Translations under genes and position numbers: made by a program
From: an uncultured virus (IMG/VR IMGVR_UViG_3300009128_000001)
Lineage: Duplodnaviria > Heunggongvirae > Uroviricota > Caudoviricetes
Reading direction: 5' to 3' (one strand)
Virus record (IMG/VR): IMGVR_UViG_3300009128_000001
DNA length: 64,000 nucleotides
The notes under the pieces: model-generated
Databases searched by the model: none
Told to the model about the DNA's origin: nothing
The model's input: only the letters and a program-made list of their open reading frames with translations
Shown: piece by piece, positions 21,178 to 63,245 of the stretch
Numbering within the stretch: the first letter of the stretch is position 1
Layout of the letters: the number at the start of each line of letters is the position of its first letter

Positions 21178-21179
21178 TT

Positions 21180-29643: not shown

Positions 29644-29672
29644 CTAACAATCGACATGGCACAATCTTTGTA

Positions 29673-30185
29673 TCAGTCCAGCTTGAGTGCCGGCAATTGA
29701 CCACCCGTTGGAGATAACCAATTTCTAAGTGTCCCGTAAATACTTCGTGGTGTTATATCCAAATCGCAACAAGAACAATCATTGGTCGAATAAAGCATGA
29801 TACCAACCAAATCGGGTGAAGAATTAGAATAGAGAGAGTAAGAATAAAAATGAGACACTTGTTGGTATATATTCCTTAACGTTTTGCCAGAAGATACCAA
29901 ATCGTCCAGAATAACATATCTACTGGCAGATCCATATCCGCTAACATTATGACAATCCGCAGAATCATGGCAAGATTTACGAACCATGATTAAAGGGATG
30001 TCTAACTCATAAGAGATAACCGGGGCAACTAATGTTCCACTCATACCTGTAAAAGCAATTGCGTCAAAAGGATGTTTCTTCCTGAATTTTTTGATTCTTG
30101 GAGCCGCCCGCCTAATAAGTTTTTTCAGTTTCTTTTGATTTAAGGCAGCGCTCAACCAAGTGGCGTGTGTATATCTGTCAGACAT
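29673..30185 (-). CDS. Type I phosphoribosyltransferase
   Basis: AFTGMSG, VRK, YVILDDLVSSGKT PRPP-binding loop. Confidence 0.85.
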   Translation of the reverse strand: MSDRYTHATWLSAALNQKKLKKLIRRAAPRIKKFRKKHPFDAIAFTGMSGTLVAPVISYELDIPLIMVRKSCHDSADCHNVSGYGSASRYVILDDLVSSGKTLRNIYQQVSHFYSYSLYSNSSPDLVGIMLYSTNDCSCCDLDITPRSIYGTLRNWLSPTGGQLPALKLD

Positions 30186-46282: not shown

Positions 46283-46355
46283 TATATTGGGTTGCCTTAT
46301 AATAAAATGACATTAGGATGAAAGTACCAATCAACCCGATCTCTAAGGAGTTAAC

Positions 46356-46463: not shown

Positions 46464-46482
46464 ATATAATAAGTAAAGTTTC

Positions 46483-46512
46483 AAAAGCCGCCTTTTATTT
46501 GGCGGCTTTTTT
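46483..46512. terminator. Bidirectional intrinsic terminator
   Basis: AAAAGCCGCC-loop-GGCGGCTTTTTT between convergent genes. Confidence 0.8.
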
Positions 46513-46515
46513 GTT

Positions 46516-46902
46516 TTAGCAACCCATCCTTCGCTCAGATTCTTGCTCCATCCGGCAATAATAATCAAACTCGGCCGCAGCAGCTTGACAATCACACCAT
46601 TCATCATAAAGCTTTTTTTGCTCATCGTCCAAAAGATACTCATTTACTACTACAATTAGCCGCTTACCATTACATTCGGGACATACGACATCATAAAGAC
46701 CGTTCATATAGTTTTCGCGGTCCTCATAATCCCAATCTTCTTCCCATTCAGACGCAGTAATGCCATCTGAAAAAGCAGGATGATCTACTTTCCCATGACC
46801 TTCACATTCCGGGCAAACTTCAAATTTAGCCGGCAAAGATAAACAAACCTCAATTTCCTCGCCATTGTCATCTTCACGGTAAAATGTAATTTCTTTTTCC
46901 AT
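46516..46902 (-). CDS. Phage protein with DnaJ-type CxxCxGxG zinc motifs
   Basis: VCPECEGHG, YDVVCPECNGK, ERRMGC. Confidence 0.7.
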   Translation of the reverse strand: MEKEITFYREDDNGEEIEVCLSLPAKFEVCPECEGHGKVDHPAFSDGITASEWEEDWDYEDRENYMNGLYDVVCPECNGKRLIVVVNEYLLDDEQKKLYDEWCDCQAAAAEFDYYCRMEQESERRMGC

Positions 46903-46948
46903 TTTTAATTTCCTCGGTTAATGTGTGGAATTGTGCCCGCGTCCCTCT

Positions 46949-47012
46949 AATATACGCACGATCCGACCAGTGTCAACCCCTCCCACCAACTTTCCTGGCA
47001 CGAACCTTGCAT
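46949..47012. promoter_or_regulatory. sigma70-type promoter (minus) back-to-back with sigma54 site (plus)
   Basis: TTGACA-16-TATATT minus; TGGCACGAACCTTGCAT plus at 46996. Confidence 0.75.
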
Positions 47013-47016
47013 GCAG

Positions 47017-47223
47017 TCACCCACCAATTAGTTCGGATAATTTCCAAATCAAATAGTTTACTTCCATATCCCCATGAAAATCATCCAATTCATTTATCGC
47101 GCACTCAATAGTTGCTCGGTCTCCAGCTCCAGCATTAAATAAGGCATATGAATAAGAATTGCGCCCGAAATGATAGTAATAATAAGAAAGAATTCTAACT
47201 GTTTCGTTGTCTAGCTTGTACAT
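47017..47223 (-). CDS. Hypothetical protein, paralog of 59458..59664
   Basis: LDNETV..H.G..S..Y.L..G.G.R.TIE.A..EL..NYL.WKL. Confidence 0.7.
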   Translation of the reverse strand: MYKLDNETVRILSYYYYHFGRNSYSYALFNAGAGDRATIECAINELDDFHGDMEVNYLIWKLSELIGG

Positions 47224-48011
47224 ATTAACTACTCAATAATGATTCACTAATTACACTTTGCGGCCTTTATGTATCACTTTTGACCTTTCTTTTTCTTCGG
47301 TTTATGTCTTGGAAAAGCATAAGCCACAAATCCGTTCTCATCTTCTTCTTCGGTTGGCAATAGTCTTCGGCCACATTCAGGACATCGGACCTTTTTTCTT
47401 TTCATTAGTCCGGTAATCCATTCATATGATCCTGGACAAGCCTCCCAATCGTGTTCGTGGGCCTTTTTACATCGTTCATTCATGATCTATTTACCTGAGC
47501 GCTTCGGGATGTTCTCCTTGTATAATCCTAAAACAAGATTCGGGAACATTCCACAAATCAATACCTCCGGGCAAGTAAATATCACATACTGGCTCGTTAA
47601 ACTCTTCACAGCCAGGACCATCAGGATTTAGATTGCAAAATGTTACATCGCCTTTATTGTATAATAGTTTTACCGTACCATTATGTAAATCTGACCATTC
47701 AACTGGGTAATCCTCGGTAAACTCAATTATATGTGTGGCTCGCATTATACCTCCGGCTTCTAAGAATGAGGACCAATATCCGTTTCCTCATACATCTCTA
47801 TTTTATCCTCATCCTCTGACGGATATATTACAGTACCATTCTCGTCAAATATTAAGGTTAAACCAACGTAATCTTGATCAGCCAATCCACGAACAATACT
47901 TTTAGCAGCATTTTTACTTTGAGTAATGGCTATCAATTCTAAACCAGTACAGGCCGATGTGCCAGTATAACAGCGAAACTCTTTAGTTCCAACAATATAA
48001 TACTTCATTGT

Positions 48012-48632
48012 TTAATTTCCCTTGGCTTTAGATACAATCCGGAAATAATCCTTAATTATTCCGGATTCTGGGCCATAAGCTTTTTTCAATTGCGCCCCAG
48101 TATCCAAAGCCATCTCTTCAAAACGATCCCATTCAGATCGAGACATCTTTTCTTTCTTGGGCTGCAACAAACAAATTGATAGTTTATCCTTAATGGCTTT
48201 TGTGGCAATGTTTACTTCTTCCCAACACCATAGATTAGGAGTAGCTACACATACTCGAAGCATTCCCTGGTGTACTTCCAAATGCATACCATTGCCAGCA
48301 TAACTATTCATCCCAAGCTTATCTTTCAAAACCTGGTCACAATAATTAGCGAACTTCCAATATCCCCCGGTCTTTTGGAAACATTTACGATTTCCCCAAT
48401 GACCAAAAAAGTAAACTACACGAGCAGCTACAGCCAAAATCTCAGCGGGAATCTCATAAAAAGCATTCCGCAATTCTTCACTAGGCCATTTCACATCCAA
48501 ATCATCATTCTGAATTTGATTTTCGGATTCTCTAACTGTTCGAATTACCAATTGCCTAACATTTCGAGGCAATGCACGATAACTAGGAACTGCCCAAGCT
48601 GCCCACGCATACTTATAATCAAAACTAGACAT
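48012..48632 (-). CDS. Hypothetical protein
   Basis: Long co-oriented ORF; start moved to MSSFD. Confidence 0.65.
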   Translation of the reverse strand: MSSFDYKYAWAAWAVPSYRALPRNVRQLVIRTVRESENQIQNDDLDVKWPSEELRNAFYEIPAEILAVAARVVYFFGHWGNRKCFQKTGGYWKFANYCDQVLKDKLGMNSYAGNGMHLEVHQGMLRVCVATPNLWCWEEVNIATKAIKDKLSICLLQPKKEKMSRSEWDRFEEMALDTGAQLKKAYGPESGIIKDYFRIVSKAKGN

Positions 48633-49900
48633 TACAAGCCTCTCGAAATCGCTCCCTATCAAAACGAGGATTATCTCCGGCAAACAAATCAGCCAAAAAC
48701 TCAAACAATTTCTTGCGAATTGCCGGTTTCTCTTGACTTACTTTTTCAGCCGCCGCAATGTAATCTTTCCTAGTCATTGTTTTTTCCCTTATAACGATAT
48801 GGTCCAACCAATTCCGCAAACTTAGGATTAGAGTTTTGCCATTCTTTATATGCTTGTGCTAGTTTCTTGGTAGGAAAACACCAACAATATCGGTGACTTC
48901 CACTATGACCATTATCCTTGTCATATAAAACCCAAAGAGTCTTAAATGGGAATGTCCACTTGTCGGCCACTTCTACCTCAATTCTCTGGGCGAATAATAC
49001 AACCATTCATCTTCAAAGTTAGGATCCTTGTACTTGCCAATAAGAGGATCAACTAACACATCAATGAATAGCCCTTCCACCCCCTCTTCTTCACTAGCCA
49101 ATACAGTAATTCCCATACTAGAAACGTATGTTAGCTCTGAATTTGTTTCAAGCGTTTTAATGGCATGATCGATAAAGCTATATATCTTTATCCAAGAGGT
49201 ATGCGGATTTCTTTCTAATATAAAATCAATTGCCGATCTTAATTGTCTACGCTGAATGATTGTTTTCATGGTTTAGTTTCCCGTTTCTAGCATCCTTAAA
49301 ACATTCCCAACCTTCTTCTGCTTCTCGGCTAATAGGTCTTTCTCCCCACCCACACTTATTCATATCAGCTGCGAAATTGTATCCAGCACGCTCTGAATCA
49401 GTAGTACAATAATCTAGATTATAAAGCTTACACCACAATTTCCAACCATGAATCCATTCTTGCTTATTGACTACCATAATGTACCGCCCCTTAACTTGTC
49501 CGCGAGAGAATGATGTAGGACAATCCACTAATTATCCCCGCAGCAATTGAACTCAAACCAAAAACTACAGCTATGGCAACTCCAAATGCAATTGCTCCCA
49601 CAACCATTATTATAGTTTTCACCGCTAAACCTCTATATCATACATTTCCACCAAGTATTCACGCGCTTGTTTCTCTGTAGGAAAAACAACCCAATCTGTG
49701 CAATCTAAGTAACCTGGTGCACTTAATCTAGCTCCCCACCCTTCTACCTCAATGATATAATCCAGCTCCCCAATGGTAAAGTTATCGGTGATTTGTTTGC
49801 GAGTAAATAAATCGGCAGGAAGCCAATTAGTCCCTTCATAAGTCTCGTATTCCCACCACCGACCAAACTCTACCTGGGGCTGCATGAATGAAGACATAAT

Positions 49901-50281
49901 CTATGCCTTGGATAATGCCTTTTCTTGACAGTTAAGAGCCTTTTTTAGAACATCATAGGCTTTCGTATGATCAATGTTGTTTAGCAATAGTTGAATATGT
50001 CTGCCGGTAAGGTTGTAATCCTGAACACCATAAACACGGGTAGGAGTCTCTTCTTTTGGTCGCCGTTTAAGCTGTTTATATGGCCTAATAGAAGCAATAA
50101 CCATAGCACCAGGTTTTTGATCCGGAATGGTCCAATCAAATCCATGTGCATTTTGGATTGTAATTCCGTCATCAATAAATCGATCTCCTTCCATTTGAGC
50201 ATTAGGAAAATTCTTCCTAATATAATTTACCAGGTTTAACTTGTCCATTAATTCGCGTCGTGAAGTCTCTATTAGTTTCAT
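49901..50281 (-). CDS. Hypothetical protein, paralog of 59069..59437
   Basis: PNA..FIDD..NA.GF.W..YKQLKRR..RVYG..Y.LT..HI.LLLN.ID. Confidence 0.75.
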   Translation of the reverse strand: MKLIETSRRELMDKLNLVNYIRKNFPNAQMEGDRFIDDGITIQNAHGFDWTIPDQKPGAMVIASIRPYKQLKRRPKEETPTRVYGVQDYNLTGRHIQLLLNNIDHTKAYDVLKKALNCQEKALSKA

Positions 50282-50308
50282 TTTTATCTCCAAAACTTTT
50301 CGTCTAAA

Positions 50309-50932
50309 TTAGTCCTCGTCCATATAATCAGGATCAATTAGCTTTTTATGACCCAAGCCAATCAATGCCTGCATAATCTCTTTTCGCTCTGGATAACCAC
50401 CATTATAATCGCTAGCTGCAATTGCGCTTTGATTGTTATCCCAAAGCCATCCAAATACTTCCCCCTCCCAACCATCAGGACTATCTTCCAAAAACAGAAT
50501 TGATCCCTCGCTGGAAATATTCTCTAAGGTTGCCTCATATTCTCGCTCACTATAATCAGATTCATTAGCTACCGGATAATCACTCAAGGCATTAAACCAT
50601 TCCGTGATTACTCGGAAAATTCGGCTAGGCTCACCATTGCCATCCAATACCTTGAATGATAAATGATCGCACCAACCAACCGCCCAATGATTACAAGAGG
50701 TTATCTCCCAATCATTTTCTAAAGTCTCGTCTTCATTTAGATGCTTTTCAAGAGCATCCGCATTAGACTCTTCCAAAAGGCCAGAATCCCTATGTCGAAT
50801 TACCGGGCCCAAAGACCAAGTATAGAACATTTCATCATAATGTTCATGATTAGGCGACAAACCAAAATCACCAGGACGGTTCAATGCGTCTTTAATGTCT
50901 TGTTCAGTAATGTCTGGATTTGCGTCTAACAT
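50309..50932 (-). CDS. Conserved phage hypothetical protein
   Basis: RDSGLLEESN, HWAVGW, LSDYPVANESDYSERE. Confidence 0.7.
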   Translation of the reverse strand: MLDANPDITEQDIKDALNRPGDFGLSPNHEHYDEMFYTWSLGPVIRHRDSGLLEESNADALEKHLNEDETLENDWEITSCNHWAVGWCDHLSFKVLDGNGEPSRIFRVITEWFNALSDYPVANESDYSEREYEATLENISSEGSILFLEDSPDGWEGEVFGWLWDNNQSAIAASDYNGGYPERKEIMQALIGLGHKKLIDPDYMDED

Positions 50933-51699
50933 AATTATCTCCCCAGCAATCCGCGCTACAATATATTTCTAGCCAATTTCAGGGTTGTCTTCTCTCGAAA
51001 ATCCCGGAAAGGCAAAATTATATTTAAGATGTAGCTTCCAATTAGTGGTCAATACCTTCCCCGCCAAATCATTAATGCGAGCAATATCTCCATCCAAAAA
51101 ATCCTCTACTAATGCCCGATAAAATGTTCTCTGATCAGTAGAGTCAGGCATTACTACATCATCACCCAAAATAAAACAATGATGCAATTTGCGGTCGAAA
51201 TTAGTAAATGGGATTTTGCTAGGCTTTACATACCGCAAATTAGTCCCCAATAGCTCATAAGGGGTCTCTACAAGTAGATATGCCTTACGATTGGCAAAAT
51301 GTGTGTCTAAGATCTTGGTTGCGTATTTATTGATTACTTGAGACTTCTTGCTCATTTCAAATGTTTCCTAAATATTTTAATTACTTAATTATATATAAGT
51401 TCCAATTCTATATTCTTCCCCATCATTGGATAGTTCAATTACCACCCCGGAAAAGAATGAATCGGAATAATAACCGGACCAGCCCAGCTCTAATAGCTCG
51501 CCGGAAGAACGCAGAAAATCACTAACATGATAATAATGGCCTTTATAATTGATCCATCCGTAGATTTTATCTTCTTCGTCTAACCAATCATATTCATCCA
51601 TAATATCTTGCGGAATAGAATCGCAATACAAAAAAGATCGCCATTTATGATCAGTCTTTATATTTAGCTCGCCCATGGCTCCTCCCGCGCGTCCCCCTT

Positions 51700-51763
51700 A
51701 ACATAATCACTCAGCCTCCCGTGTCAACCCCTTAGCTGAAAATAGTTGGCACAGGACTTGCAT
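51700..51763. promoter_or_regulatory. sigma70-type promoter (minus) back-to-back with sigma54 site (plus)
   Basis: TTGACA-16-TATGTT minus; TGGCACAGGACTTGCAT plus at 51747. Confidence 0.75.
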
Positions 51764-52391
51764 ACAACCGTTATACCGCTATCAGTTTGAAGATGTTGAA
51801 ATCTTTATCCATTACTTCCTCTGCAAATGGATTTATTTCCTCATCAGTTATGTCCCAGAACTCTAACGGTCTCGAATATGTTTCCTTTAACCATTCCACA
51901 AGACTTTTCGATCTTTTGCGCTCACGATAATGCCTTACTTCCATACAAAAATGAGTAATAAAAATCTTAAAGCCATTTGCTCTATGAGTTTTGGTGTCGT
52001 CAATACTATTATATGGCGCTTCCACTACTACGCCCAGTTCTTCATCATAACCAATACAACCAATATATAAGTTATAACGACTGCACAAGGTATGATATTC
52101 TTGTAAAAAGCGCTCGCAATCACGATCTGTATTACTATGTTTTTCGCAAGATCGTTCCCAAATCTCTTTTACTATTGACTCTTTCATTTAAATCCTATCA
52201 CCTTTGCGCTTGAATAATATGCGATACGAATTCATTTTATCCTCTCTACAATTCGCATCTATTTCAACTACTGTGGTCGTCTCAATTATTGCGCAAATCT
52301 CCCACCCCTTTTGGCCATACTGCTGCAAAGACCACATAAAATCTTCATCATCATCTACCCATTCTGCTCTATAATCGAAAGCACGCATACC

Positions 52392-52877
52392 CTACTCCGC
52401 ATAATCGTAGAAAACCCACTTACCCTTTTTATTCTTTCCTACTTGACAACAATCCAATCGCTCCGCCCATTTAGGGAATTTGCAGTAGTCGCTATCCCAC
52501 CAACTCTCAAATTTGATTTCTTTAAGACGCTCCATCACTATTACCCGGCCCTTAATCAAATTGCACCAGGCTATTCTCTTTTTCCACTTCTCCCTTTTCC
52601 CAATGCTCCCCTCTTTAACACCTTTCCACCAACGAAACTCACGCTTATTAGCTCTAACGCCTGCCATACCAATCGGAAACTTATATACTTTTGTCCCACA
52701 TGGCGCTAGGAATGTTGCCCTATGCCTTCCACTATTGATATATGTAAATCCAAGCTTGTTTAGTTTTAAAATAAAAGCTCTGGGCGGAGCTTCCTTATAA
52801 TAATATTCCGGAACTGTATAATTCCAAATGTGTCTGTTGTTTACACTTCCGACATATCGATACTTGTTGGGTATCAC
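52392..52877 (-). CDS. Small protein-kinase-like fold protein
   Basis: NSGRHRATF, VYKFP..N.RE, VMERL, VFYDYA. Confidence 0.5.
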   Translation of the reverse strand: MIPNKYRYVGSVNNRHIWNYTVPEYYYKEAPPRAFILKLNKLGFTYINSGRHRATFLAPCGTKVYKFPIGMAGVRANKREFRWWKGVKEGSIGKREKWKKRIAWCNLIKGRVIVMERLKEIKFESWWDSDYCKFPKWAERLDCCQVGKNKKGKWVFYDYAE

Positions 52878-53071
52878 TCGCGCGCAACCCTTATACAGCT
52901 TCTCCCTTGAAATACTTGTCCAATAGTTTGCTTTTAGTAGATTGGGAGAGCTTTATTCTTTCCCCGCCCATTCCAACTAAATCGGAGCGAGTATATTCCC
53001 GCCCATATCTTTTCATTACTCTGCAAATATGAGCAATATATTTCTTGCTATTGCTGCACTGTGTCATTTTT

Positions 53072-53662
53072 CTATCCCGCCATTACCTTGTCGGACCAAT
53101 ACTTAAATGATTTCCGCAACCTACCAATAAAGTCTTTATCTGATAGATTTGTTTTAGTACCACCACTCATCTCAAAGTGATTATACATTAGAGTATCGGG
53201 ATGAATTGGTACCTCATCCTCACTTGGACTTGCATTGATTGAGACAATTTCCCAATCGCAATCTGTTTCATTCTCGCCATTCTCTACCAATACATCATGA
53301 CGATATAATATAATCTCTACTTTCTTGGCGGGCACTTTTGCTCCGGCTCCAGTAACTTGTTTCCTAGGCTCTTCCCCCTCTTTTCTTGGATGAAACAATC
53401 CCCACAATTCCGCCCCATCCCTTAATTGAATGATCCCGGAATAAAAACCCTCTACAGGTACAGGAATCAATACAACACCATCCCTATATCCAGGCTTAGC
53501 ATTATCAAAGCTCTCTTTTACCAGTGAAAGTAATTCTTTTTCAGTTCCAGTATAATGTGACCGCTGGCTAGGTGTATGCCGGCTCCTAGCAAATTCTGTC
53601 ATTGCAATTGTAGGCATGATTTTAATTCCTAACTCGTTGATATGACTAAACGGTTTTGACAT
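53072..53662 (-). CDS. DUF3228-like protein
   Basis: GYRDGV, R.EGEEP, ILYRHDVL.E, WEIVSINA, P..PDT. Confidence 0.65.
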   Translation of the reverse strand: MSKPFSHINELGIKIMPTIAMTEFARSRHTPSQRSHYTGTEKELLSLVKESFDNAKPGYRDGVVLIPVPVEGFYSGIIQLRDGAELWGLFHPRKEGEEPRKQVTGAGAKVPAKKVEIILYRHDVLVENGENETDCDWEIVSINASPSEDEVPIHPDTLMYNHFEMSGGTKTNLSDKDFIGRLRKSFKYWSDKVMAG

Positions 53663-54026
53663 TGGCGCTGATTACCTCAACTCCTTTACCCCAATTCCAT
53701 TCCAACTTAAATCCGGATACATTTATGATATAGCCTTCCGAACCACAACAATCACAACAGATCAGTGGTTCAACACTTCCGCCCCATTTTTCTTATCTAT
53801 TCGTGCCTTACACATCATCATCGCTACTTCATCTATAATTACATGATATATTTCCCTAGACGGGTACCCTTTGTCTATATAGAATAGTTCAATAAATGGC
53901 TGAAGTTGTTTGCTTACCAAACTAGCTAGATAATTAGCATCAGCAGTGTAAGTTTCATACTTACCCTCAAATAGTGATTTCTTATCCATTTCTCAATCTT
54001 TCTTCAATTGCTTTTTGTCCTAAATC

Positions 54027-54371
54027 TTATTCCTCACAGAAATCTAGCTTTTTGGTCTCTCCCAAATCTGGCCCCACACATATAACTACTAATACACAAT
54101 CAGAACCAACGCTACCCTGTCTCTTTTCTACAAGATGATGCGGATCACACATTTTTTGACCCTGAATTAAACGAATCTCTTCTGTTCGGCTTTTATGCTT
54201 AAACCCATAAACAAGTAGCGCTATAATTCCAGCCACACCACAGATAATAAGTAGAGCCTTTAGACTATCTAACCAATGCTCACTAAACCAATTCTTAAAT
54301 CTATACCACATTGTAGGTTTCTTAGGTTCTAAATCTGGTAGAACCTCTCCCTTTTTCCTATAAAAGCTCAT
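54027..54371 (-). CDS. Membrane protein
   Basis: Single TM helix and Cys-containing C-terminal domain. Confidence 0.6.
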   Translation of the reverse strand: MSFYRKKGEVLPDLEPKKPTMWYRFKNWFSEHWLDSLKALLIICGVAGIIALLVYGFKHKSRTEEIRLIQGQKMCDPHHLVEKRQGSVGSDCVLVVICVGPDLGETKKLDFCEE

Positions 54372-54741
54372 GGTATATAATGAGCCTCAAACAATTCCCT
54401 CACACTCGCATCCCTATATTCCCCACTATCATCGGGAATAAACTTGTGAGACTTTTTTTCAGGATCTACATCTGAAATATAAATAGAATGAATAAGCTTA
54501 GAACTTTCAAACCTTTCTTTTAGCTCTTTATCCAGCTCTTTTTTATCCAAATCTGTCCTAATCCAGTAATATAATGATCCGTCAGGCCAAGAATATGAAT
54601 GCATCAATTGGAAATCTTTAAGCTTTTCCGCAAACTCCTTCTCGACTTTCCAATTAGCCTCTTGAGCTTTTATGCTTTTTGGCGTATCATCTGGCCAACC
54701 ATCCGTAGGACCAAGATAACTTATATCCAATAGAAAGTAAT

Positions 54742-54945
54742 TCATACTGCAAACCCATATCTGCGGAGGCGTGCTATAAAATCGCGCCAACTACAATCGG
54801 ATCCTGGTGTTTTAGATCCAACAATCAATTCTCCAGCTTCTGTATAAACTTTCAAATGACCACTTCCACCTACAACAATAGTTCCTCCCTGTTTTTTTAT
54901 CTTTCTTAGAGTTTTCTTAATTAGACTCTTCTCTACTTTAGCCAT
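54742..54945 (-). CDS. HicA-like small protein
   Basis: GGSGHLKV..SKTPG..LRRYGF pattern. Confidence 0.5.
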   Translation of the reverse strand: MAKVEKSLIKKTLRKIKKQGGTIVVGGSGHLKVYTEAGELIVGSKTPGSDCSWRDFIARLRRYGFAV

Positions 54946-54970
54946 TTTTCTTTATCTCCGGTTTAATTAG

Positions 54971-55042
54971 TGGGCCTACTCAGATTCGAACTGAGACTCA
55001 ACTGGTTAAAAGCCAGCTGCATTACCATTATGCTATAGACCC
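54971..55042 (-). tRNA. tRNA-Lys (UUU)
   Basis: Full cloverleaf; GCTGG-CTTTTAA-CCAGT; CTCAG-TTCGAAT-CTGAG. Confidence 0.92.
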
Positions 55043-55217
55043 AGATTGGATAGTTATACTTAGGAGTCTACGAAACTTAATTCTCGGCCCAGAGGTATTA
55101 ACGTAGCTATCCGTCTACGGCTGATTACCACAGCTTCGAGCTTTTTTCCTGTGATTAGCAGGTTGTTCATAGGGAATTCGCTACCCCTACTAGCTAATAA
55201 TCAATTAGCGCCTCTAG

Positions 55218-55293
55218 GGTATCCGACCAGACTTGAACTGGCATCATCTAGGGCCACAACCTAGTGCATTATTCCTGTTATGCTACGGATACC
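55218..55293 (-). tRNA. tRNA-His (GUG) with G-1:C73
   Basis: CTAGG-TTGTGGC-CCTAG; GCCAG-TTCAAGT-CTGGT. Confidence 0.9.
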
Positions 55294-56038
55294 AAGCGCC
55301 AGTTTTTTAACCAGCTACACATTAAGAGCAGCGGAGAGAAACTGGCCAAAAACTCATAAGTCCTATTTCAGATCTGCCATTCCAAAGGAACAATATGGCT
55401 CGTCTGTTCCACTATATAGATCGGAAATGTCTATAGAATTCCCACTATTATCTTCCCAATCTACCTCATCGCCAGCAATAAACTCTTGATGAATACATTG
55501 GTTCGTCTCAGTATCAAACTCCTGAATAACAAATCCAATTGTAATCTTTTTGATGATCATTGCTTATTACCACCTATCTATTGACTTGTAATCCTCAGTT
55601 ACTTTTTGCCACTCATCCCTTACTACAGGGTGCCAACAAGGATTAGGTTCTTTATTAGGCTCCCAATTGTCCCGTGCCCATTGTCGGAACTTACTTTCTT
55701 CTTCTAGATCTAAATCCCTAAAAAATGAATTAGGTATGCTCATAACTACAATTACCTACCTTCTACCTTTTGCTTTTTGCATTGAGCGCAAGAAAACTAC
55801 CATTGTAATCAACGCTCCGCAAAAAGCTACTGTAATTGGATAACCATTGACCGGAAAAAGCGTATATCGGCATACTTCAAACATAGAGGCCATCCACCAA
55901 ACCGATAGGAATACACATACCGCAAAAAAGATCTTCAACATTATCTTGCTCTCCGCTTGAATTGGAGTGTTGGTAATTAAATTGGTTAGTTTTTTATTCG
56001 GGAAACTAACCCAAAACCCTAGCACCCAGCGCCAAGTC

Positions 56039-56443
56039 TTAAAGCCTGCCTCGTTCCTTTGCCGCTCCCATTACCTGAAAAAGATCCAGCCCCAACCTAT
56101 CCACTAGATCCAGGACAATATCATAATCATCCTTTGGCTTCGGTTGAGCTTTCTTTACTGGCGCCTTTGCTTTCTTAACCGGAATATTCTGGGTTGCTTC
56201 TGCCTTTTCTCCCGTGTATTGATATGTGTCCCGTCCAATGCGAGCACAACCATCTACAATCTTTCCGCTCTTAAAAGCGCGCGTAATGTAATAATCACGC
56301 TTCTCTACCGGCAAATTAGAATCGCTCATGTCTACCAGATCAGACTTGCTAAAAACCTGATTAGACTTTTTCTTCATTGCCTTAGTGATTACGGCTAGAT
56401 AATCCTTGCCGTCCGGGTTAATCTTACGTCCACGACTTGCCAT
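56039..56443 (-). CDS. Basic putative DNA-binding protein
   Basis: Possible winged-helix N-terminus, KKAKAPVKKA linker. Confidence 0.55.
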   Translation of the reverse strand: MASRGRKINPDGKDYLAVITKAMKKKSNQVFSKSDLVDMSDSNLPVEKRDYYITRAFKSGKIVDGCARIGRDTYQYTGEKAEATQNIPVKKAKAPVKKAQPKPKDDYDIVLDLVDRLGLDLFQVMGAAKERGRL

Positions 56444-56500
56444 GATATCCTTTTCCCTTTTTCTTTTGCTGATTATTGGTTGTTGAGTGTATTAAAACAC

Positions 56501-56580
56501 TGGCGCTCTAATATAGGAGTCGAACCTACTTCTCCAGACAATTCATTAGCCTGGCGTTTTACCACAAAACTAATTAGAGC
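56501..56580 (-). ncRNA. Aberrant tRNA: 8-bp acceptor stem, enlarged anticodon loop, encoded CCA
   Basis: GCTCTAAT/ATTAGAGC-GCCA; D-arm GTTT/AAAC; CCAGGC-TAATGAATT-GTCTGG; GTAGG-TTCGACT-CCTAT. Confidence 0.7.
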
Positions 56581-57187
56581 ACATAGAAGTTTTTTCATAA
56601 TATACGAATCTACATCTACAGCCTACTAAAACTTCTATCATAAAACTCGGCTGCGATTATAGATAAGTGAGGTTTTTATAATATTCCCGCACACCTAACT
56701 AATCAGGTAACCCTAGATTACGTCTAAACTAGAGAAGATTGGGTTGACTAGTATCCCCTCTCTTTACCTCCAACCCTCATAGTTAGAACTTATATGTGCG
56801 TTCTATAACACTATAAAGTCTTTGATAAGTCGCAGTGTCTCTATAGCACCTAGTTTTTTTATAACAACTCCACTACTAAAACTAGGAAAACTTGCGAATG
56901 GTGGATAAGATAACTACCACATTATCCTACCCCAATAGTTTTTATAAGGTCAAACCATTAAACCATATTAGATTGTTGCTCGCTTGGTGTTTTTGGGCTC
57001 TTGGTTAAACAGGGCTTTTTCTGCTACTTTAGGATCCCCATTGATATTAAACCACTTGGCGCAACAATGAGAGAAAAAGGTTGCTGTATTAGTATCGGCC
57101 CAGCAATTCCCCACTTTACCATTATCACTCGACCAATGAATACAGTTTTTGCAATTATCCACAATAACTCTCCCGCGTTCGTTTATT

Positions 57188-57252
57188 AACCTAATCACGA
57201 TTCGAGCGGTGTCAAGGGCTGTACGTCACTTTTTTTGGCACAGCCCTTGCAT
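57188..57252. promoter_or_regulatory. sigma70-type promoter (minus) back-to-back with sigma54 site (plus)
   Basis: TTGACA-16-TAGGTT minus; TGGCACAGCCCTTGCAT plus at 57236. Confidence 0.75.
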
Positions 57253-57341
57253 ACACCGATTCAGCTAAAGAAACAAGACCACTATATATCCGCCAATTAT
57301 ATATCCGAAGATAAAACCATGGCGGAATTCAATTGAGCCTA

Positions 57342-57662
57342 TCATGCCGAAACTCGAATAGTTGGATCCTTGTCTTTGACTTTCTTTTGCGGGATCTTAT
57401 AACCCTTCTCAACCAACAATGCCTTAGCAGCATCATTATCATCTGTATATCTGCCCCTAGTTCCCTTTACATAAGATACCTTGCCTTTTTCTCGGACTAC
57501 TGGCACCTTATGATCAATCTGGGAAACAATATTCGGCCGCAATTGACTCTTCTTTTGCTTGATCTTTTCCAATTGTCGCTTGAGATCTTTTTCTTCTAGC
57601 TGTAGATCAATGTATTCGTCAACCAACATCTCAAAACTAATATCATATGCAGCTTCAGTCAT
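57342..57662 (-). CDS. Hypothetical coiled-coil protein
   Basis: Co-oriented ORF with GGAG RBS. Confidence 0.65.
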   Translation of the reverse strand: MTEAAYDISFEMLVDEYIDLQLEEKDLKRQLEKIKQKKSQLRPNIVSQIDHKVPVVREKGKVSYVKGTRGRYTDDNDAAKALLVEKGYKIPQKKVKDKDPTIRVSA

Positions 57663-57856
57663 GATTATAGATCTCCTAGTTTTTCGCCGGTTACCATATC
57701 AAACCAGCTTAGGTGCGTATAGTTTTCTCCAGGTTCAGTCCAGGCCCAGAGAATGGCTTTCTTGCCATTGTAATAATCCAGGCTAACATAATGTCCGCTC
57801 GGTAGTTTTTCGAGAATATCTGTGGGTACCATGTTTCTTCTCTCGTCTGTTCTTAT

Positions 57857-57922
57857 AACCTAATCACGATCCTGCCCGTGTCAAGCCCCCCTCTGTCACT
57901 TTTCTTGGCACGGCTCTTGCAT
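57857..57922. promoter_or_regulatory. sigma70-type promoter (minus) back-to-back with sigma54 site (plus)
   Basis: TTGACA-16-TAGGTT minus; TGGCACGGCTCTTGCAT plus at 57906. Confidence 0.75.
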
Positions 57923-57934
57923 ACGGTTTTTATA

Positions 57935-58321
57935 TTAACGCAAAGATTCCCAACGGTTTTTCATTCTATCAATTGCTTCGGGCGGAACATCATGAACATT
58001 ACCAAAATCATTCTGACATTCAATTACACTCACACTGTAACCATACTTTTCCGCCAATTCAAAGTAAACCTTAGCTTCCCACTTCTGACTAAAAGTATTA
58101 TGTACAGCAATCTTTTGAATAGATTCCACCATACATTTCTCTACATTAGTTTGACATTGGCCGTGTGCTTGTTTTAGTTTAGACGGATCGAAGTTATATC
58201 CGCCATCTTTTTCGAAGTAATCATCAGCAGCAAAGAGAGCGCCAGTCCAACCTACCAGATCCTTTGCTACAGTTGTTTTTCCACTTCCAGGCAATCCACG
58301 AACGATGTATAGAATATTCAT
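57935..58321 (-). CDS. P-loop kinase (AAA_33, polynucleotide-kinase-like)
   Basis: RGLPGSGKTT, ADDYF, AHGQCQ, VHNTF, NVHDVP..IDRM..RWE; start corrected. Confidence 0.85.
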   Translation of the reverse strand: MNILYIVRGLPGSGKTTVAKDLVGWTGALFAADDYFEKDGGYNFDPSKLKQAHGQCQTNVEKCMVESIQKIAVHNTFSQKWEAKVYFELAEKYGYSVSVIECQNDFGNVHDVPPEAIDRMKNRWESLR

Positions 58322-59068
58322 GTTTTTATTCCTATAGATAGAGATTAACCAGGTATTCGGCAGCCTCACGAGAAGAATTAAAAGTAATTGTTTCTCCGGG
58401 TAATTCAAGTCTCCAAGTGTTTCCTCGCCGATTAGAAAACATTGTAAAGTCATCGTGGTGAATAGTTTCGTCTTCTATTCGGTATTGGGTTAGCTCTATT
58501 GCCGTGTTAATTGCGAATGGTGAGTGCATTGTTTTATCCCTATCCGTGTGAAAAAGTTACCCTCGTTTGCTTTGCCCTCATTCTCCACTTACCATCTCCC
58601 CCGCCTGTCCGCTTACATACTGGCCCTTTATATCTTACTATTGGGTCGGATGTGGGGGCAGGTAATGAATTAAGCGCTTCTTTTTTATTCCAACATTCTC
58701 CAGTTTCTTCACACATAACTTTAACTGGCGAACTTTGGACGTTATAACCTTCTTCTTTTCTTAGGAAGTTTAGGAGTAGATGTTTAGCTATACGCCAGCG
58801 GTTTTTTTCTTGATTGAATTGCGCGCGGTTAACTTCTTTTATTACCTCGAATGTATCCCCGCTTGCAAACCACATCTTCCACAATACTTTTATGAACTTA
58901 GGCTTTTTTTCTCTCTTTTTTCTCTCCCCTTTTTTACCTGAACTTCTCGCCGCTAATGCTTGAGCTTTTTCGAATACCTCTTTTCCTACCTGCCAGTCTT
59001 CTGCTTTTATTGGTGGATTATCTGTACCATCACATATCCAAAAGGACATTGGCAAACCTCTTTTAGCT

Positions 59069-59437
59069 TTAGCGTGCGTTTTCTTGGCACATAAAAGGAC
59101 GTTCGAGGATACTAAAAACCTTTGATTGATCAATGGTGTTTAGCAATAATTCAATGTGTTGCGGTGTTAGATGGTATTCTTTAGTGCCATATACCCTTAT
59201 TGGTTTGCGCCCCCTTCGTTTCAATTGCTTATATGCTCTAACACCTATCAATACCTGAGCAGTAGCGTTTTTTAGGATGTTCCACTCAAAACCATCGGCA
59301 TTATTACACCTTACACTATCATCTATAAACTGCTCATATTCATCATCTTGTTTTGCATTAGGACAGTTTTTAATGATATAATCAACCGTTTTTAGTTGAT
59401 CTGCTAGTTTTTGGCGCGCTTCTTTTAATACTGACAT
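59069..59437 (-). CDS. Hypothetical protein, paralog of 49901..50281
   Basis: Shared motifs; GGAG RBS before MSVLKE. Confidence 0.75.
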   Translation of the reverse strand: MSVLKEARQKLADQLKTVDYIIKNCPNAKQDDEYEQFIDDSVRCNNADGFEWNILKNATAQVLIGVRAYKQLKRRGRKPIRVYGTKEYHLTPQHIELLLNTIDQSKVFSILERPFMCQENAR

Positions 59438-59457
59438 GGCGTAGTCTCCTGTAGGCT

Positions 59458-59664
59458 TTAATTGGCCTTTAGTACACTTTCCAGTTTCCAAGTTAGATAA
59501 TTCGCCTCGTCATTCTGAAAAGCATGAGGCGTTAACTCGTCCAAAGCCCTTTCTATTGTTTCCCTCGTACCTTTGCCTACAGACATCAAAGAGTAAGTAG
59601 CAGAATATTGTCCGCCATGCCAATAATGAAGTAGAGTCACAGTTTCATTATCAAGTCCAAACAT
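59458..59664 (-). CDS. Hypothetical protein, paralog of 47017..47223
   Basis: WHGGQYSATYSL. Confidence 0.7.
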   Translation of the reverse strand: MFGLDNETVTLLHYWHGGQYSATYSLMSVGKGTRETIERALDELTPHAFQNDEANYLTWKLESVLKAN

Positions 59665-59685
59665 GGTTCCCTCCGCTCTAGTTAT

Positions 59686-59750
59686 AACCTAATCACGTTT
59701 AGGGGGTTGTCAATGGGTCATACCAGATAAAACTGGTATGACCTTTGCAT
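59686..59750. promoter_or_regulatory. sigma70-type promoter (minus) back-to-back with sigma54-like site (plus) in a palindrome
   Basis: TTGACA-16-TAGGTT; TGGTATGACCTTTGCAT; GGTCATACCAG/CTGGTATGACC inverted repeat. Confidence 0.7.
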
Positions 59751-59756
59751 GTAGGT

Positions 59757-60590: not shown

Positions 60591-60613
60591 GATTGCGTGC
60601 CTTTCTAATATAT

Positions 60614-60641
60614 AGCCTAATCACTGCTAGGCTGTTGTCAA
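60614..60641 (-). promoter_or_regulatory. Early sigma70-type promoter for ardC
   Basis: TTGACA-N10-AGTGAT-TAGGCT. Confidence 0.75.
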
Positions 60642-60974
60642 GGTTTCGCATGTTCTTTTTTGCGCTTTTCTAACACTCCCCTATAATCTCAAGATCATTA
60701 AGGAAAACATCACACGGCACCATCTCGCCTTGATTGATCTCGCGCAAACCAAACACTTTCTTATTCTCGCGTGAATAAACTTGTTCAATGTCTAGCCAAG
60801 CGAATATTGTTGATCCATCCTTGTGTTTGCATTCTACGAAGATCTGGCGCATTGGATTGACTCCTAATGATGGGTTGAGGTAAAAAACCGTTCACACCCG
60901 AGTAAGTAGAGCATAATTAGAATTGAATGGTTTCCTTTTGCGTGTTGGCTCTACTTGGCCGGATATGTAGGTTT

Positions 60975-61024
60975 TGGCGGAACATGTAGGAATCGAACCT
61001 ACATAATTATATCCCAGATGTTCC
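60975..61024 (-). ncRNA. 50-nt tRNA minihelix-like RNA with encoded CCA
   Basis: GGAACAT-15nt-GTAGG-TTCGATT-CCTAC-ATGTTCC-GCCA. Confidence 0.65.
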
Positions 61025-61290
61025 AGATAGGTATAGTCAGAACCACGACCAAACTATACCTTAGCTTTTTATATCGGCGCCGTTCTCGTGTACGCCAGTA
61101 GTAGGAAAAGCCCACCTAGTAGTTTTAAGGCTATAACTACCAAACCTTACACGGCCCGGCCTATATTAGCGATAGGCCCTACGTCTTTGGGAATATTAGG
61201 GCGCCTTTTTATCAGCGCCCCCTTGGTTGTGGTTGAATAGGTAGTTTGCCAGACTATCCTATCCTTCCGCTAACACTTGCTTTCGCCCAC

Positions 61291-61536
61291 TTACTGGGAA
61301 AGCTCGGTCAACACTCGATAAGCCGTCATAGCGTCACAGAAACTGTTGCCGCTAACGTTGTCCAAACCCTTTACAGGCTCAAGACCACTAGGCCCATCCA
61401 GGTTAACTACAGTGCATCGGGAATCGTTGCTAACCATTAGCTGAATGCTATCAGGAAAACAGCCAAGCTCGCGAGCCTGACGGAATGCCTCTTTGCACTC
61501 ACTAACAGTCTTAGCAGTACGACCACGGTTTGCCAT
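61291..61536 (-). CDS. Small early protein, tandem paralog of 61676..61951
   Basis: MANRGRTAKTVSECK..GLEPVKGLDN.SGNSFCD; AGGAG RBS. Confidence 0.8.
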   Translation of the reverse strand: MANRGRTAKTVSECKEAFRQARELGCFPDSIQLMVSNDSRCTVVNLDGPSGLEPVKGLDNVSGNSFCDAMTAYRVLTELSQ

Positions 61537-61602
61537 GTAGGTACTCCTAGCTGGAAGGTTATGGTTTGACGCGACTTGCACTATTACTCGCCGCCAAGGA
61601 AT

Positions 61603-61630
61603 AAAGTAATCACGTTTTTGGGGCTGTCAA
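61603..61630 (-). promoter_or_regulatory. Early sigma70-type promoter
   Basis: TTGACA-N10-CGTGAT-TACTTT. Confidence 0.7.
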
Positions 61631-61675
61631 TGGGTAGGAGTAACTTTTTTGCTACCCCTACCCAACCCCACCGAT

Positions 61676-61951
61676 CTATTCAGACCGGGGAAGGGATCCG
61701 TTGATAAGCGTTTGAAGCTTCATCAACTCCAGGAAAACCCCCATACTATCGCAAAACGAATTCCCTGAAAGATTGTCCAAGCCCTTTACAGGCTCAAGTC
61801 CGTTTGCCCCTTCAAGGTCCACCACTGTACACCGGCCATCACTGGTTACCATTAGCTGGCAACTAACCGGGAATCCTCCCTTATTCCTAGCTTCACGCCA
61901 GGCTTGCTTGCACTCGTCAACAGTCTTGCTTGTTCGTCCGCGTTGTGCCAT
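61676..61951 (-). CDS. Small early protein, tandem paralog of 61291..61536
   Basis: MAQRGRTSKTVDECK..; AGGAG RBS. Confidence 0.8.
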   Translation of the reverse strand: MAQRGRTSKTVDECKQAWREARNKGGFPVSCQLMVTSDGRCTVVDLEGANGLEPVKGLDNLSGNSFCDSMGVFLELMKLQTLINGSLPRSE

Positions 61952-62010
61952 GATTAACTCCTGTTGTTTCCTAACTTGTTGTCGGTTCGTTTTCCGTGTC
62001 TGCCTTTATG

Positions 62011-62035
62011 TTCCGTATCGGTCGGGTTGGGGACA
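62011..62035. repeat. 25-bp direct repeat copy 1
   Basis: TTCCGTATCGGTCGGGTTGGGGACA, identical at 63189..63213. Confidence 0.85.
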
Positions 62036-62087
62036 CTTTTTTCAAACTTTTCGACCCATGATTAGCTGCTCTTTTGGTTTGGGTTAT

Positions 62088-62154
62088 TGGTGGGAAGTGT
62101 AGGACTCGAACCTACTCCAAACACCCGTAAGTGTTTGGCGCCCTATACCATCCC
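62088..62154 (-). ncRNA. D-armless tRNA-like RNA with encoded CCA
   Basis: GGGA(T)GGT/ACTTCCC-ACCA; CCAAACAC/GTGTTTGG hairpin; GTAGG-TTCGAGT-CCTAC. Confidence 0.6.
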
Positions 62155-62450
62155 GCGCTACCATGTAAGGCGCGCAGATTCACAACGATGGCTCTCCTCA
62201 ATTGCCAGATCAATGTGGTAGTGTACCAAAGTGTCATGTGGAAAACGATCAAGAGCTTTTTTGATCGAGGTAGCTACTAGAGCGTACCTATTCCCCCGCC
62301 TTTCCGTTTCAGACAATAGATCCCTTAGTATGTTTTGGGCTAGCCCCTTGTCTTGGCTCATGTGGGTTAGAGCCTTGAATAGTTCGGATCGTATATTGAT
62401 CGGCTTAAACATTATCCGCCCCTTGTTTGGGTTATCGGGCTATGTGTGGG

Positions 62451-62478
62451 AAGTTAATCACGCTAGGGGCATTGTCAA
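62451..62478 (-). promoter_or_regulatory. Early sigma70-type promoter
   Basis: TTGACA-N10-CGTGAT-TAACTT. Confidence 0.7.
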
Positions 62479-62500
62479 CCCCTAGCGCGATCTTTTCTGA

Positions 62501-63052
62501 CTATTGAATTAGAAACTGACCTTTGGGGCCTTCTGCCACTAGTCCCTTGTAATGGGTTTGGAGCAATTGCCAGAGCGCTTTTTCTGCTCTGGCTGGTACG
62601 CTGTTCTTTTGGCTCCTACGATGCCAGAACCTACCCCGGATCCCTTTCCAGGCATTAAGGGACGACTTGCGATAGGGCGTCTTGATCTTAATGCGCCAAC
62701 CATATTGGCTATGATAACGCTCGATAAAGATCACTGGCTTTTGGGCCGCGCGTTCTGCCTTATCTCCTAGGCGTTTTTCGATCCGATCCGCTAGGGCATC
62801 AAAACCTAGGGAGCGGAGCCTTTGAACCTTGGGCGGAATAGTAGGGCCAACTTGATCCCGTGCTATCTGGTAGATTAGCACATTAGCCTCTTTATTCTGT
62901 GCCTCGCTGATATGGCTTGTTGACTTGCCATACATCTTTCGACACTTTGGGCCCATCATAACCTGGGCTGACTTTGCGTTGACTAGGGAATACCCACAAG
63001 CCGCGCACCTAATGTCCAAGAGTTTAGTTGCTTTGGCGTTTTCGTGATCCAT
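62501..63052 (-). CDS. Zn-finger (DUF6011-like) plus HARP-like domain protein
   Basis: RCAACGYSL..S..MGPKC; IKTPY..KGIRGRFW..SVP. Confidence 0.6.
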   Translation of the reverse strand: MDHENAKATKLLDIRCAACGYSLVNAKSAQVMMGPKCRKMYGKSTSHISEAQNKEANVLIYQIARDQVGPTIPPKVQRLRSLGFDALADRIEKRLGDKAERAAQKPVIFIERYHSQYGWRIKIKTPYRKSSLNAWKGIRGRFWHRRSQKNSVPARAEKALWQLLQTHYKGLVAEGPKGQFLIQ

Positions 63053-63089
63053 TGTGCCCTCACTTGGTTAGTGTTTCGAGCATACAAGC

Positions 63090-63117
63090 AAACTAAGCAC
63101 GCTTTGGTTGTTGTCAA
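63090..63117 (-). promoter_or_regulatory. Early sigma70-type promoter
   Basis: TTGACA-N10-CGTGCT-TAGTTT. Confidence 0.7.
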
Positions 63118-63213: not shown

Positions 63214-63245
63214 GCTTGCGGGCCAATGATAAGAAGGAATCGCAT

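Follow-up and report, generated by a model that had tools for sequence, protein, structure and literature searches.

Silent sigma-54 complexes in described systems

Sigma-54 is the one bacterial sigma factor that keeps RNA polymerase silent on DNA, and its sites are known from enhancer-dependent −24/−12 promoters such as glnAp2 (NtrC), nifH (NifA) and pspA (PspF). Here we describe sites of this type in DNA of an uncultured virus (IMG/VR record IMGVR_UViG_3300009128_000001), where they stand back-to-back with early sigma-70 promoters. The stretch analysed, 64,000 nucleotides long, is called the window throughout. The window sites share the core of the known promoters, GG and GC being ten bases apart, as well as their preferences at the minor positions. 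They differ in that they run antisense, at a fixed distance from a sigma-70 promoter on the opposite strand, and in that no downstream gene, enhancer-like element or phage activator was found for them in the window.

A second parallel comes from E. coli, where RNA polymerase (RNAP):sigma-54 is transcriptionally inactive at most of 135 mapped sites, according to the available part of the report (Bonocora et al. 2015, PMC4591121). The inactive sites are of promoter quality, hold a silent holoenzyme and in many cases are antisense or far from gene starts; they are scattered and mostly intragenic, and the available text reports no fixed relation to sigma-70 promoters. The window sites, in contrast, are intergenic, lie at the boundaries of phage transcription units and are phased with the −35 box. 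Why genomes keep promoter-quality sigma-54 sites that transcribe nothing is posed in the same text as an open question (PMC4591121).

Overlapping sigma-70/sigma-54 promoters, in which two holoenzymes compete for one control region, form a third parallel (refs 27 and 31 of PMC4591121; glmY/glmZ, PMC3045617; both texts available in part). The former references are cited for repression by sigma-54 from a site overlapping a second promoter (PMC4591121). The two promoters themselves overlap in all these cases, whereas in the window they are back-to-back and share only the A-rich upstream spacer. The sigma-70 and sigma-54 promoters of glmY and glmZ reportedly run in the same direction from a common start region. 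Class I activator sites, such as those of CRP at −61.5 and −72.5, and the UP elements of strong phage early promoters offer a further likeness, namely an upstream element at whole-turn distances from the −35 box and an A/T-rich spacer. Here, in contrast, both orientations occur, each with its own preferred gaps, and we know of no class I activator whose motif matches the sequence.

No description of sigma-54 sites in phage early regions was found in open-access papers and preprints. In the available parts of two papers, a Pectobacterium phage protein is given a weak HHpred likeness to sigma-54 (PMC7693777), and the phage resistance of rpoN mutants is explained by glutamine and RpoS (PMC8744999). 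The sigma-54 site itself is known; what is apparently new is the phage context, the missing phage activator and the phased coupling to sigma-70 promoters. The window sites may be docking sites for the host sigma-54 RNA polymerase holoenzyme, built into delayed-early sigma-70 promoters that they would tune, a reading to which we assign a probability of about 40%.

Sigma-54-type sites at early promoters of the window

The initial annotation had placed plus-strand −24/−12 sequences 19-21 bp from the −35 box of five minus-strand TTGACA promoters. The analysis bears this out, with four of the sites exact and one degenerate. It adds two tandem sites and four promoters of the same class without a site, which had been missed. 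Sites, including one look-alike, are as follows.

46996..47012, plus strand: sigma-54-type site TGGCACGAACCTTGCAT; 24.8 bits; gap of 19 bp to the −35 box of P46976; 4 nt from the stop of 47017-47223(−)
51747..51763, plus strand: sigma-54-type site TGGCACAGGACTTGCAT; 25.0 bits; gap 19 bp; 7 nt from the stop of 51771-52187(−)
57236..57252, plus strand: sigma-54-type site TGGCACAGCCCTTGCAT; 22.7 bits; gap 20 bp; 89 nt from the upstream stop
57906..57922, plus strand: sigma-54-type site TGGCACGGCTCTTGCAT, the top-scoring one; 26.6 bits; gap 21 bp; 12 nt from the stop of 57935-58453(−), an ATPase/kinase-like gene
59734..59750, plus strand: degenerate site TGGTATGACCTTTGCAT; 16.0 bits; gap 20 bp; 6 nt from the stop of the ArdC-like gene
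29657..29673, plus strand: weak look-alike TGGCACAATCTTTGTAT, a doubtful member; 12.9 bits; TTGT for TTGC (GT for the −12 GC)
63295-63314 and 63244-63263, minus strand: two tandem sigma-54-like sites TTGGCATGGTTTCTGCT and TTGGCACGATTCTTGTT; 16.1 and 17.3 bits by position weight matrix (PWM)

The exact pattern TGGCAC-N5-TTGC occurred four times in the window, always on the plus strand (46996, 51747, 57236 and 57906) and always continuing as TTGCAT. With up to one mismatch it occurred 11 times, a count reached by none of 100 dinucleotide shuffles (mean 3.17, largest 7). The spacing is N5; an N6 version had no match in the window. A PWM scan, which the initial annotation had proposed, gave seven matches above 13 bits in the window against a mean of 0.9 in 10 shuffles; the window holds seven sigma-54-type sites. 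The four exact sites have the GG and GC dinucleotides at the canonical sigma-54 spacing. The extended sigma-54 consensus is YTGGCACGrNNNTTGCW, a string that itself occurs in the literature, and the window sites follow it at the minor positions: in the exact sites the base before TGG is T, T, C and T, and that after CAC is G or A.

The degenerate site at 59734 reads TGGTAT...TTGCAT and keeps both GG and GC; its TGGTAT resembles the −24 element of Klebsiella nifH. The look-alike at 29657, which the initial annotation had listed as a weaker member with a 13-bp gap, does lie at gap 13 from the −35 box of the RNA-ligase promoter; its score and its TTGT are weak, and the gap falls outside the preferred phases described below. 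The tandem sites at 63244-63314 repeat with a 51-bp period and have the same orientation as the genes; the non-coding stretch of 0.9 kb that contains them is upstream of P63117, the first early promoter.

The promoters belong to a set strongly biased in strand, TTGAC[AT]-N15-18-TAnnnT having 20 matches on the minus strand and one on the plus. Nine of them, from 46976 to 63117, form one class.

46949..46976, minus strand: promoter P46976 (TTGACA-N16-TATATT), driving 46516-46902(−)
51700..51727, minus strand: promoter P51727 (TTGACA-N16-TATGTT), driving 51389-51676(−) and the genes downstream
57188..57215, minus strand: promoter P57215 (TTGACA-N16-TAGGTT), with A-tract AAAAAAAG 13 nt upstream of the −35 box
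57857..57884, minus strand: promoter P57884 (TTGACA-N16-TAGGTT), driving 57665-57832(−) and 57342-57662(−)
59686..59713, minus strand: promoter P59713 (TTGACA-N16-TAGGTT), driving 59458-59664(−) through 57935-58453(−)
60613..63117, minus strand: four promoters of the same class (63117, 62478, 61630 and 60641; TTGACA-N16-TAnnnT) without a sigma-54-like site

Members of the class share TTGACA, a 16-bp spacer and TAnnnT; the spacer ends in (c/a)GTG(a/c)(t/g), with GTGAT in seven of nine, and in most of them an A-tract lies 13-15 nt upstream of the −35 box. The plus-strand motif accompanies five of the nine, at gaps of 19, 19, 20, 21 and 20 bp (46996, 51747, 57236, 57906 and 59734), and all five of these promoters have a −35/−10 spacer of 16 (TTGACA-N16-TAnnTT). 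The other four, each with its A-tract 13 nt upstream of the −35 box, lie nearest to the non-coding region and provide an internal contrast. Read along the gene strand, a cassette of about 95 bp consists of the previous stop codon, the reverse sigma-54 site, a short A-rich UP-like spacer, TTGACA-N16-TAnnTT and a conserved leader. The motif is 4-12 nt from the upstream stop in four of the five cassettes (89 nt at 57236). Behind P57215 the start codon is likely a GTG near 57162, after GGGAGAG.

Identity among the exact cassettes is 100% at the 12 specified bases, as against 43% for the N5, 47% for the gap and 33% for the downstream flank, so the motif is conserved beyond shared cassette ancestry. 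This bears on whether the sites have any function related to sigma-54 at all, or are remnants of a duplicated cassette, parts of an RNA hairpin or terminator, or chance matches. The five cassettes are indeed paralogous, with a common leader and a GTGAT-TAnGTT −10 region, and two sites overlap hairpins: an 11-bp hairpin at 59734 has the −24 half as one of its arms (z −4.87), and in the 9-bp hairpin at 57236 the left arm is made up of the N5 and the −24 half (z −2.22). Conservation is nevertheless confined to the sigma-54 positions, the count of matches exceeds that of every shuffle, and the other three exact sites fold like shuffled sequence (z +0.44, +1.56 and +1.21). The strongest hairpin of this type stands at P61630, a promoter that lacks a site. 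Five named phage records with rIIA relatives (four cultured, one an uncultured assembly) have one site in 1,117,911 bases, and the composite of site and promoter recurs in unrelated phages. A lack of any such function is highly improbable and already largely refuted.

Two related candidates were tried and rejected. As a terminator the motif fails in that no U-run follows any exact site, and as a MotA box its TTGCAT is followed by no −10 box at a consistent distance.

Hairpins and repeats were also noted at siteless promoters of the class. The hairpin in front of P61630 is 13 bp long, with the A-tract as its loop (z −5.22; 61631-61665). At P62478 the −35 box lies inside a 9-bp inverted repeat (GCGCTAGGGG ... 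CCCCTAGCG; 62455-62490), which could be an operator.

Possible transcription from the window sites and possible read-through into them

All five sites point antisense into the upstream gene. The initial annotation had described them as directed into its 3′ end, where no credible plus-strand gene exists, and this held on inspection: the plus-strand open reading frames (ORFs) downstream of the sites encode 43-99 aa and overlap longer minus-strand ORFs, and by their sequence none looks like a gene. The plus strand downstream of the sites yielded no shared sequence, terminator or Rfam family, and the only Rfam families in the window were tRNAs. At 45-200 bp upstream of the five sites, neither a shared 7-9-mer nor more than a single 6-bp palindrome was found. 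The sigma-54 activator domain (PF00158) was found in none of the 42 window proteins scanned. Of the attributes of a sigma-54 promoter, an upstream enhancer (expected about 80-150 bp away), a phage activator and a downstream gene or defined RNA were thus not found for the window sites. The sites would instead correspond to silent sigma-54 docking sites, being promoter-quality motifs without an associated transcription unit.

These data bear directly on whether the sites fire. They could be sigma-54 promoters opened by a host enhancer-binding protein, possibly from solution, or by an unrecognised phage activator; antisense RNA to the 3′ end of the upstream unit would then shut that unit down or couple it to the nitrogen or stress state of the host. 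The match to the promoter consensus is perfect, and antisense sigma-54 transcripts are discussed as possible regulators in the available part of the E. coli study (PMC4591121). Against this stand the missing enhancer-like element, the missing activator and the featureless downstream strand, and antisense firing, though a live alternative, appears rather unlikely. The sites are better taken as docking sites than as working promoters because neither a shared enhancer-like element nor a target gene was found.

The position of the sites just behind a stop codon suggests another role, which the initial annotation had offered, that of a roadblock or insulator. A parked holoenzyme would stop read-through from the upstream unit and so replace missing intrinsic terminators. 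In keeping with this, the site lies 4-12 nt beyond the upstream stop in four of five cases, and only one convincing intrinsic terminator (46483-46510) was seen in 44.5-64 kb. In E. coli, in contrast, genes overlapping 85 intragenic RNAP:sigma-54 sites showed no drop in expression due to the bound polymerase (3 of 85 down-regulated, p 0.47), and the authors judge a roadblock unlikely, as far as the available text goes (PMC4591121). Nor would a roadblock need helical phasing with the next promoter, and the co-directional orientation is as common in other phages (below). We consider this role quite improbable. Of the initial interpretation, the sigma-54 type of the sites and their coupling to early sigma-70 promoters stand, and the roadblock or insulator is the least likely of the roles it named.

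The bidirectional terminator at 46483-46510 (AAAAGCCGCC ... GGCGGCTTTT), the sole strong one in that region, lies behind 46516-46902(−), the single gene of the P46976 unit.

Recurrence of the motif in other viral and bacterial DNA

Two tandem copies of TGGCAC-N5-TTGCA were found at at least 122 loci in IMG/VR, where fewer than one match would be expected by chance for 22 specified bases, an estimate for which the collection size was assumed. Most of these loci hold 2-11 sites, with up to 18, at a G+C content of 33-65%. The arrays are either direct, with a period of about 26-28 bp, or alternate in orientation (21/26 bp), and examples in intergenic control regions are L039:3440-3625, L040:1-130, L052:3250-4150 and L083:4001-4180 (within loci L036-L157). 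Many lie within 60 nt of a contig end, and one 36.5-kb contig has arrays at both ends (L071, L080).

Sequence variation at the free positions was informative as to the binder. Among 501 distinct viral instances, the base before TGG was T in 65% and C in 18%, and the base after CAC was G in 67% and A in 30%; the following base was a purine in 73%, and A was favoured five bases upstream. The free positions follow the extended sigma-54 consensus. The same motif occurs in viral contigs of 33-65% G+C that share no genes, and because of this recurrence a conserved host factor fits better than a private phage operator. Sigma-54 would be the most economical candidate, since the motif is the same in unrelated phages and agrees with the minor preferences of sigma-54.

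In bacterial and archaeal genomes the tandem pattern was found at 45 loci in 596 Gb, several of them plain tandem duplications and most with taxon labels of metagenome-assembled genomes. Set against the IMG/VR loci, this indicates that arrays are far denser per base in viral DNA. One of the 45, L594 in a Nostoc chromosome, consists of at least six head-to-tail copies of a 21-bp unit, TGGCACCTTTGTTGCATGGAC; it was rejected as an accidental pattern match, the C after CAC being unlike sigma-54 sites.

Array-bearing phages were not readily placed among described ones. A search of one array against named phages by BLAST returned two chance-level matches only, and for the large terminase of the main array-bearing group no close cultured relative was found. 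No activator domain (PF00158), sigma-54 DNA-binding domain (PF04552) or psbA was encoded in any of 36 array-bearing viral records, of which 13 have a completeness of 90% or more. The T7-type RNA polymerase family (PF00940) was likewise absent from all 36, a weak blank in that it gave no match in control genomes either. No protein family common to the window and most array loci was found; scattered single matches were to ArdC, an ATPase, DUF3228, DUF932, an endonuclease-like protein and two unnamed ORFs.

The density of the arrays raises the idea, also advanced in the initial annotation, that the sites titrate sigma-54. Multiplying with the replicating genome, they would soak up scarce sigma-54 or holoenzyme and shut down sigma-54-dependent host responses. 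Arrays of 3-18 sites at the viral loci, in orientations not all compatible with promoters, would suit such decoys, as would the far rarer tandem pattern in bacterial genomes and the lack of an encoded activator in the 36 records. The window, on the other hand, has only seven sites, a single infecting genome cannot titrate early in infection, and the fixed distance and helical phase observed relative to sigma-70 promoters would not be required of a decoy. We know of no conserved anti-phage function of the sigma-54 regulon, a point for which no targeted search was made. Decoys are an improbable explanation of the window sites.

Orientation relative to genes was mixed in the other phages: 59 sites were antisense, 43 sense, 149 in divergent regions, 30 convergent and 101 at locus edges. 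This mixture does not favour antisense firing, nor do convergent array sites 2-8 bp apart, which cannot both be productive. Some loci are more compatible with it. In divergent regions such as those of L014 and L030, a gene lies 70-130 bp ahead of the site, and L073 and L062, like the window, have antisense sites at unit boundaries, with a palindrome in L073 as a possible enhancer.

In L073:3850-7950 and L062:3900-7560, groups of one to four sites, mostly tandem pairs or triplets, stand against co-directional genes, and a conserved box (GAGTTATGTAAAGAAGTTT-like) precedes each site. Tandem groups in L073 return at intervals of about 1.9 kb, and the conserved 15-bp palindrome TGAGAATGATTCTCA, which could be an enhancer or an operator, lies near the sites.

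In about 33 related IMG/VR loci the array occupies a whole divergent region. The large terminase and a 130-aa AT-hook protein flank it on one side, an M15 endolysin and a GP88-like gene on the opposite side (for example L072:3295-3687, L109:1525-2784 and L039:4263-4616). The last site lies 3 nt before a TTGACA without a −10 box. The array in this group could serve packaging. In L026, an array of 11 sites contains two DnaA boxes (TGTGGATAA; 1960-1985), a hint of a replication origin there.

Such arrays are relevant to a further possibility, that the motif is the operator or activator site of another phage or host DNA-binding protein with sigma-54-like specificity, acting as a class I-like activator or as a repressor one to three turns upstream of the −35 box. 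The tight packing of the arrays, which suits a small protein, is the main argument; the array beside the AT-hook protein and the large terminase may be a packaging or replication site, and the DnaA boxes of L026 point the same way. At the promoters, whole-turn phasing is what a factor touching RNA polymerase from a fixed face would show, with motif centres near −53, −63 and −74, comparable to class I CRP sites. Private operators usually diverge, however, and this motif is identical at 33-65% G+C in unrelated gene sets, its minor positions match sigma-54 preferences, and neither a protein family common to the window and most array loci nor, in the 36 records, a sigma-54 DNA-binding domain was found to account for it. 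Another binding protein is thus conceivable, though doubtful.

Helical phasing with sigma-70 promoters

To relate the sites to sigma-70 promoters outside the window, IMG/VR was scanned completely for a reverse site at a gap of 5-35 from TTGACA-N16-18-TAnnnT, and likewise completely for the co-directional arrangement. Matches were de-duplicated by exact context only, families being judged by eye.

The back-to-back scan gave 67 loci in 52 distinct contexts. Gaps of 10-11 (10 contexts), 19-22 (13) and 30-32 (15) accounted for 38 contexts in nine of the 31 possible gaps, and the other 22 gaps held 14. The window gaps of 19-21 fall within the middle cluster, and the gap of 13 at site 29657 falls outside all three. 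The co-directional scan gave 66 loci in 51 contexts, with gaps of 12-16 (11 contexts), 23-29 (15) and 30-35 (22); gaps of 5-11 held two contexts and gaps of 17-22 one, so that the favoured ranges are broader than, and shifted from, those of the back-to-back arrangement. Many matches in the scans were textbook promoters (TTGACA-17-TATAAT) with A/T-rich spacers.

A control motif, the site reversed and thus of the same composition, gave four loci against 67, a count that the two CpG in the control may lower. In viral contigs, consensus sigma-70 promoters are thus about 16-fold enriched for upstream sigma-54-type sites of either orientation, at distances that recur with the turn of the helix. In searches without the −10 box, the back-to-back matches listed peaked at gaps of 19, 21, 30 and 31, which is indicative only, and the co-directional matches listed were flat except at gap 29, where 16 of 17 contexts belonged to one phage family. 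Array sites showed no preferred distance to TTGACA.

The phasing suggests that two partners care about each other's face of the helix, a relation that would be compatible with help as well as with hindrance.

A putative sigma-54 docking site that tunes early promoters

Returning to the docking-site reading, we infer from the above that sigma-54 is the binder, that it is silent and that it acts on the neighbouring promoter. The holoenzyme would be parked in a closed and silent state some two helical turns from the −35 box on its upstream side, always on the same face of the DNA; silence is proposed because neither a phage activator nor an accompanying enhancer-like element was found. The −24 half of the window sites abuts an A-tract that resembles the distal UP subsite of a sigma-70 promoter. 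Given the footprint sizes of the two polymerases, the parked holoenzyme would cover this A-tract, which the alpha subunits of the sigma-70 polymerase would otherwise use. It would thereby tune the firing of the neighbouring sigma-70 promoter, most likely damping it. A downward effect seems probable because the upstream spacer is shared and because there is a precedent in E. coli for silent and for repressing complexes. Expression of the internal early units would then depend on the level of host sigma-54 holoenzyme, and the four first promoters would be exempt. The suggestion in the initial annotation that parked sigma-54 polymerase acts as a repressor thus has a precedent in the repression of a neighbouring promoter (refs 27 and 31 of PMC4591121, available in part).

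Several observations weigh against this reading. Whether the site damps or helps the promoter is a matter of guesswork, and four promoters of this class operate with no site at all. At gaps of 10-11 a holoenzyme would abut or overlap the −35 box. Back-to-back is not the sole arrangement, as the co-directional one is equally common (66 loci). Array sites elsewhere are spaced by 21-28 bp, or by 2-8 bp where they face each other, which is too tight for a holoenzyme on every site and therefore suits a smaller binder. The CpG content of the control motif and de-duplication by exact context alone bear on the strength of the phasing data. Finally, no close relative of the phage was found among named phages, IMG/VR or metagenome contigs.

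Slightly more tentative is a generalization beyond the window. Many uncultured, mostly apparently aquatic phages might carry putative sigma-54 docking sites as a modular part of early control, both as singletons one to three helical turns upstream of consensus sigma-70 promoters, in either orientation, and as arrays of up to 18; the polymerase there would be a silent architectural partner or a captured one. Recurrence in many uncultured phages suggests an apparently undescribed link between phage early expression and the host. Phages are under strong selection for compact control regions, so sites repeated at a fixed, phased distance from early promoters would argue well for a function of silent sigma-54 complexes.

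If true, this would be a use of sigma-54 without bacterial counterpart. If confirmed, early development of marine phages would have an input from the state of the host, through sigma-54 availability and nitrogen or stress signalling, and the sites would mark phages whose hosts must have rpoN. The cassette of about 95 bp may well offer a small unit in which the function of silent sigma-54 complexes can be tested.

Identity of the phage and further features of the window

The window has a G+C content of 36-46% in 2-kb windows, about 39% over most of its length, and a negative GC skew throughout; nearly all ORFs are on the minus strand. Its genes include rIIA, rIIB, a T4-type RNA ligase, an ArdC-like anti-restriction protein and a DUF932 protein, together with a radical-SAM protein, an HNH endonuclease and four to five tRNAs. 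No DNA match to the window was found among 50,697 named phage records by megablast or blastn, and the closest rIIA match, at 40% identity, was in an uncultured 462-kb phage. Five public sequencing runs, all of DNA and none of RNA, contain the window, and all are marine or seawater metagenomes. Contigs from four runs over 46000-64000 were identical wherever they covered it, with no variants. Gene content, the lack of a named-phage DNA match, the 40% rIIA match and the marine runs identify the window as early-region DNA from a large, uncultured phage of marine origin.

Relatives of the ArdC-like protein were found at one locus in IMG/VR (40% identity) and at 12 loci in metagenome contigs (40-58% identity), and none of those 12 had a sigma-54-like site.

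The end of the window, 63320-64000, belongs to about 0.7-0.9 kb of non-coding DNA upstream of the first early promoter. It contains many GATC-containing repeats (TGATCCA / TGGATCA) and a run of short repeats rich in GGTG/GGGG, and G+C is raised (45%) over 60-64 kb. This stretch may be an origin or a terminal region.

Two 68-aa genes near the sites are paralogues: 47017-47223 ends beside site 46996, and 59458-59664 is the first gene behind P59713. Farther from the sites, 18378-22452 holds a row of six consecutive paralogous genes, one with a weak DUF6745 match.

18378-18833, minus strand: paralogous gene
18843-19184, minus strand: paralogous gene
19184-19645, minus strand: paralogous gene
20719-21189, minus strand: paralogous gene
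21180-21635, minus strand: paralogous gene
21940-22452, minus strand: paralogous gene

The tRNA count differs by method. A fifth tRNA at 28186-28279 was called by Rfam (36.4 bits) and is absent from the ARAGORN list, and a tRNA-Leu at 34267-34351 was called by ARAGORN and is absent from the Rfam table. An HNH endonuclease gene (34393-35085, plus strand) adjoins this tRNA-Leu.

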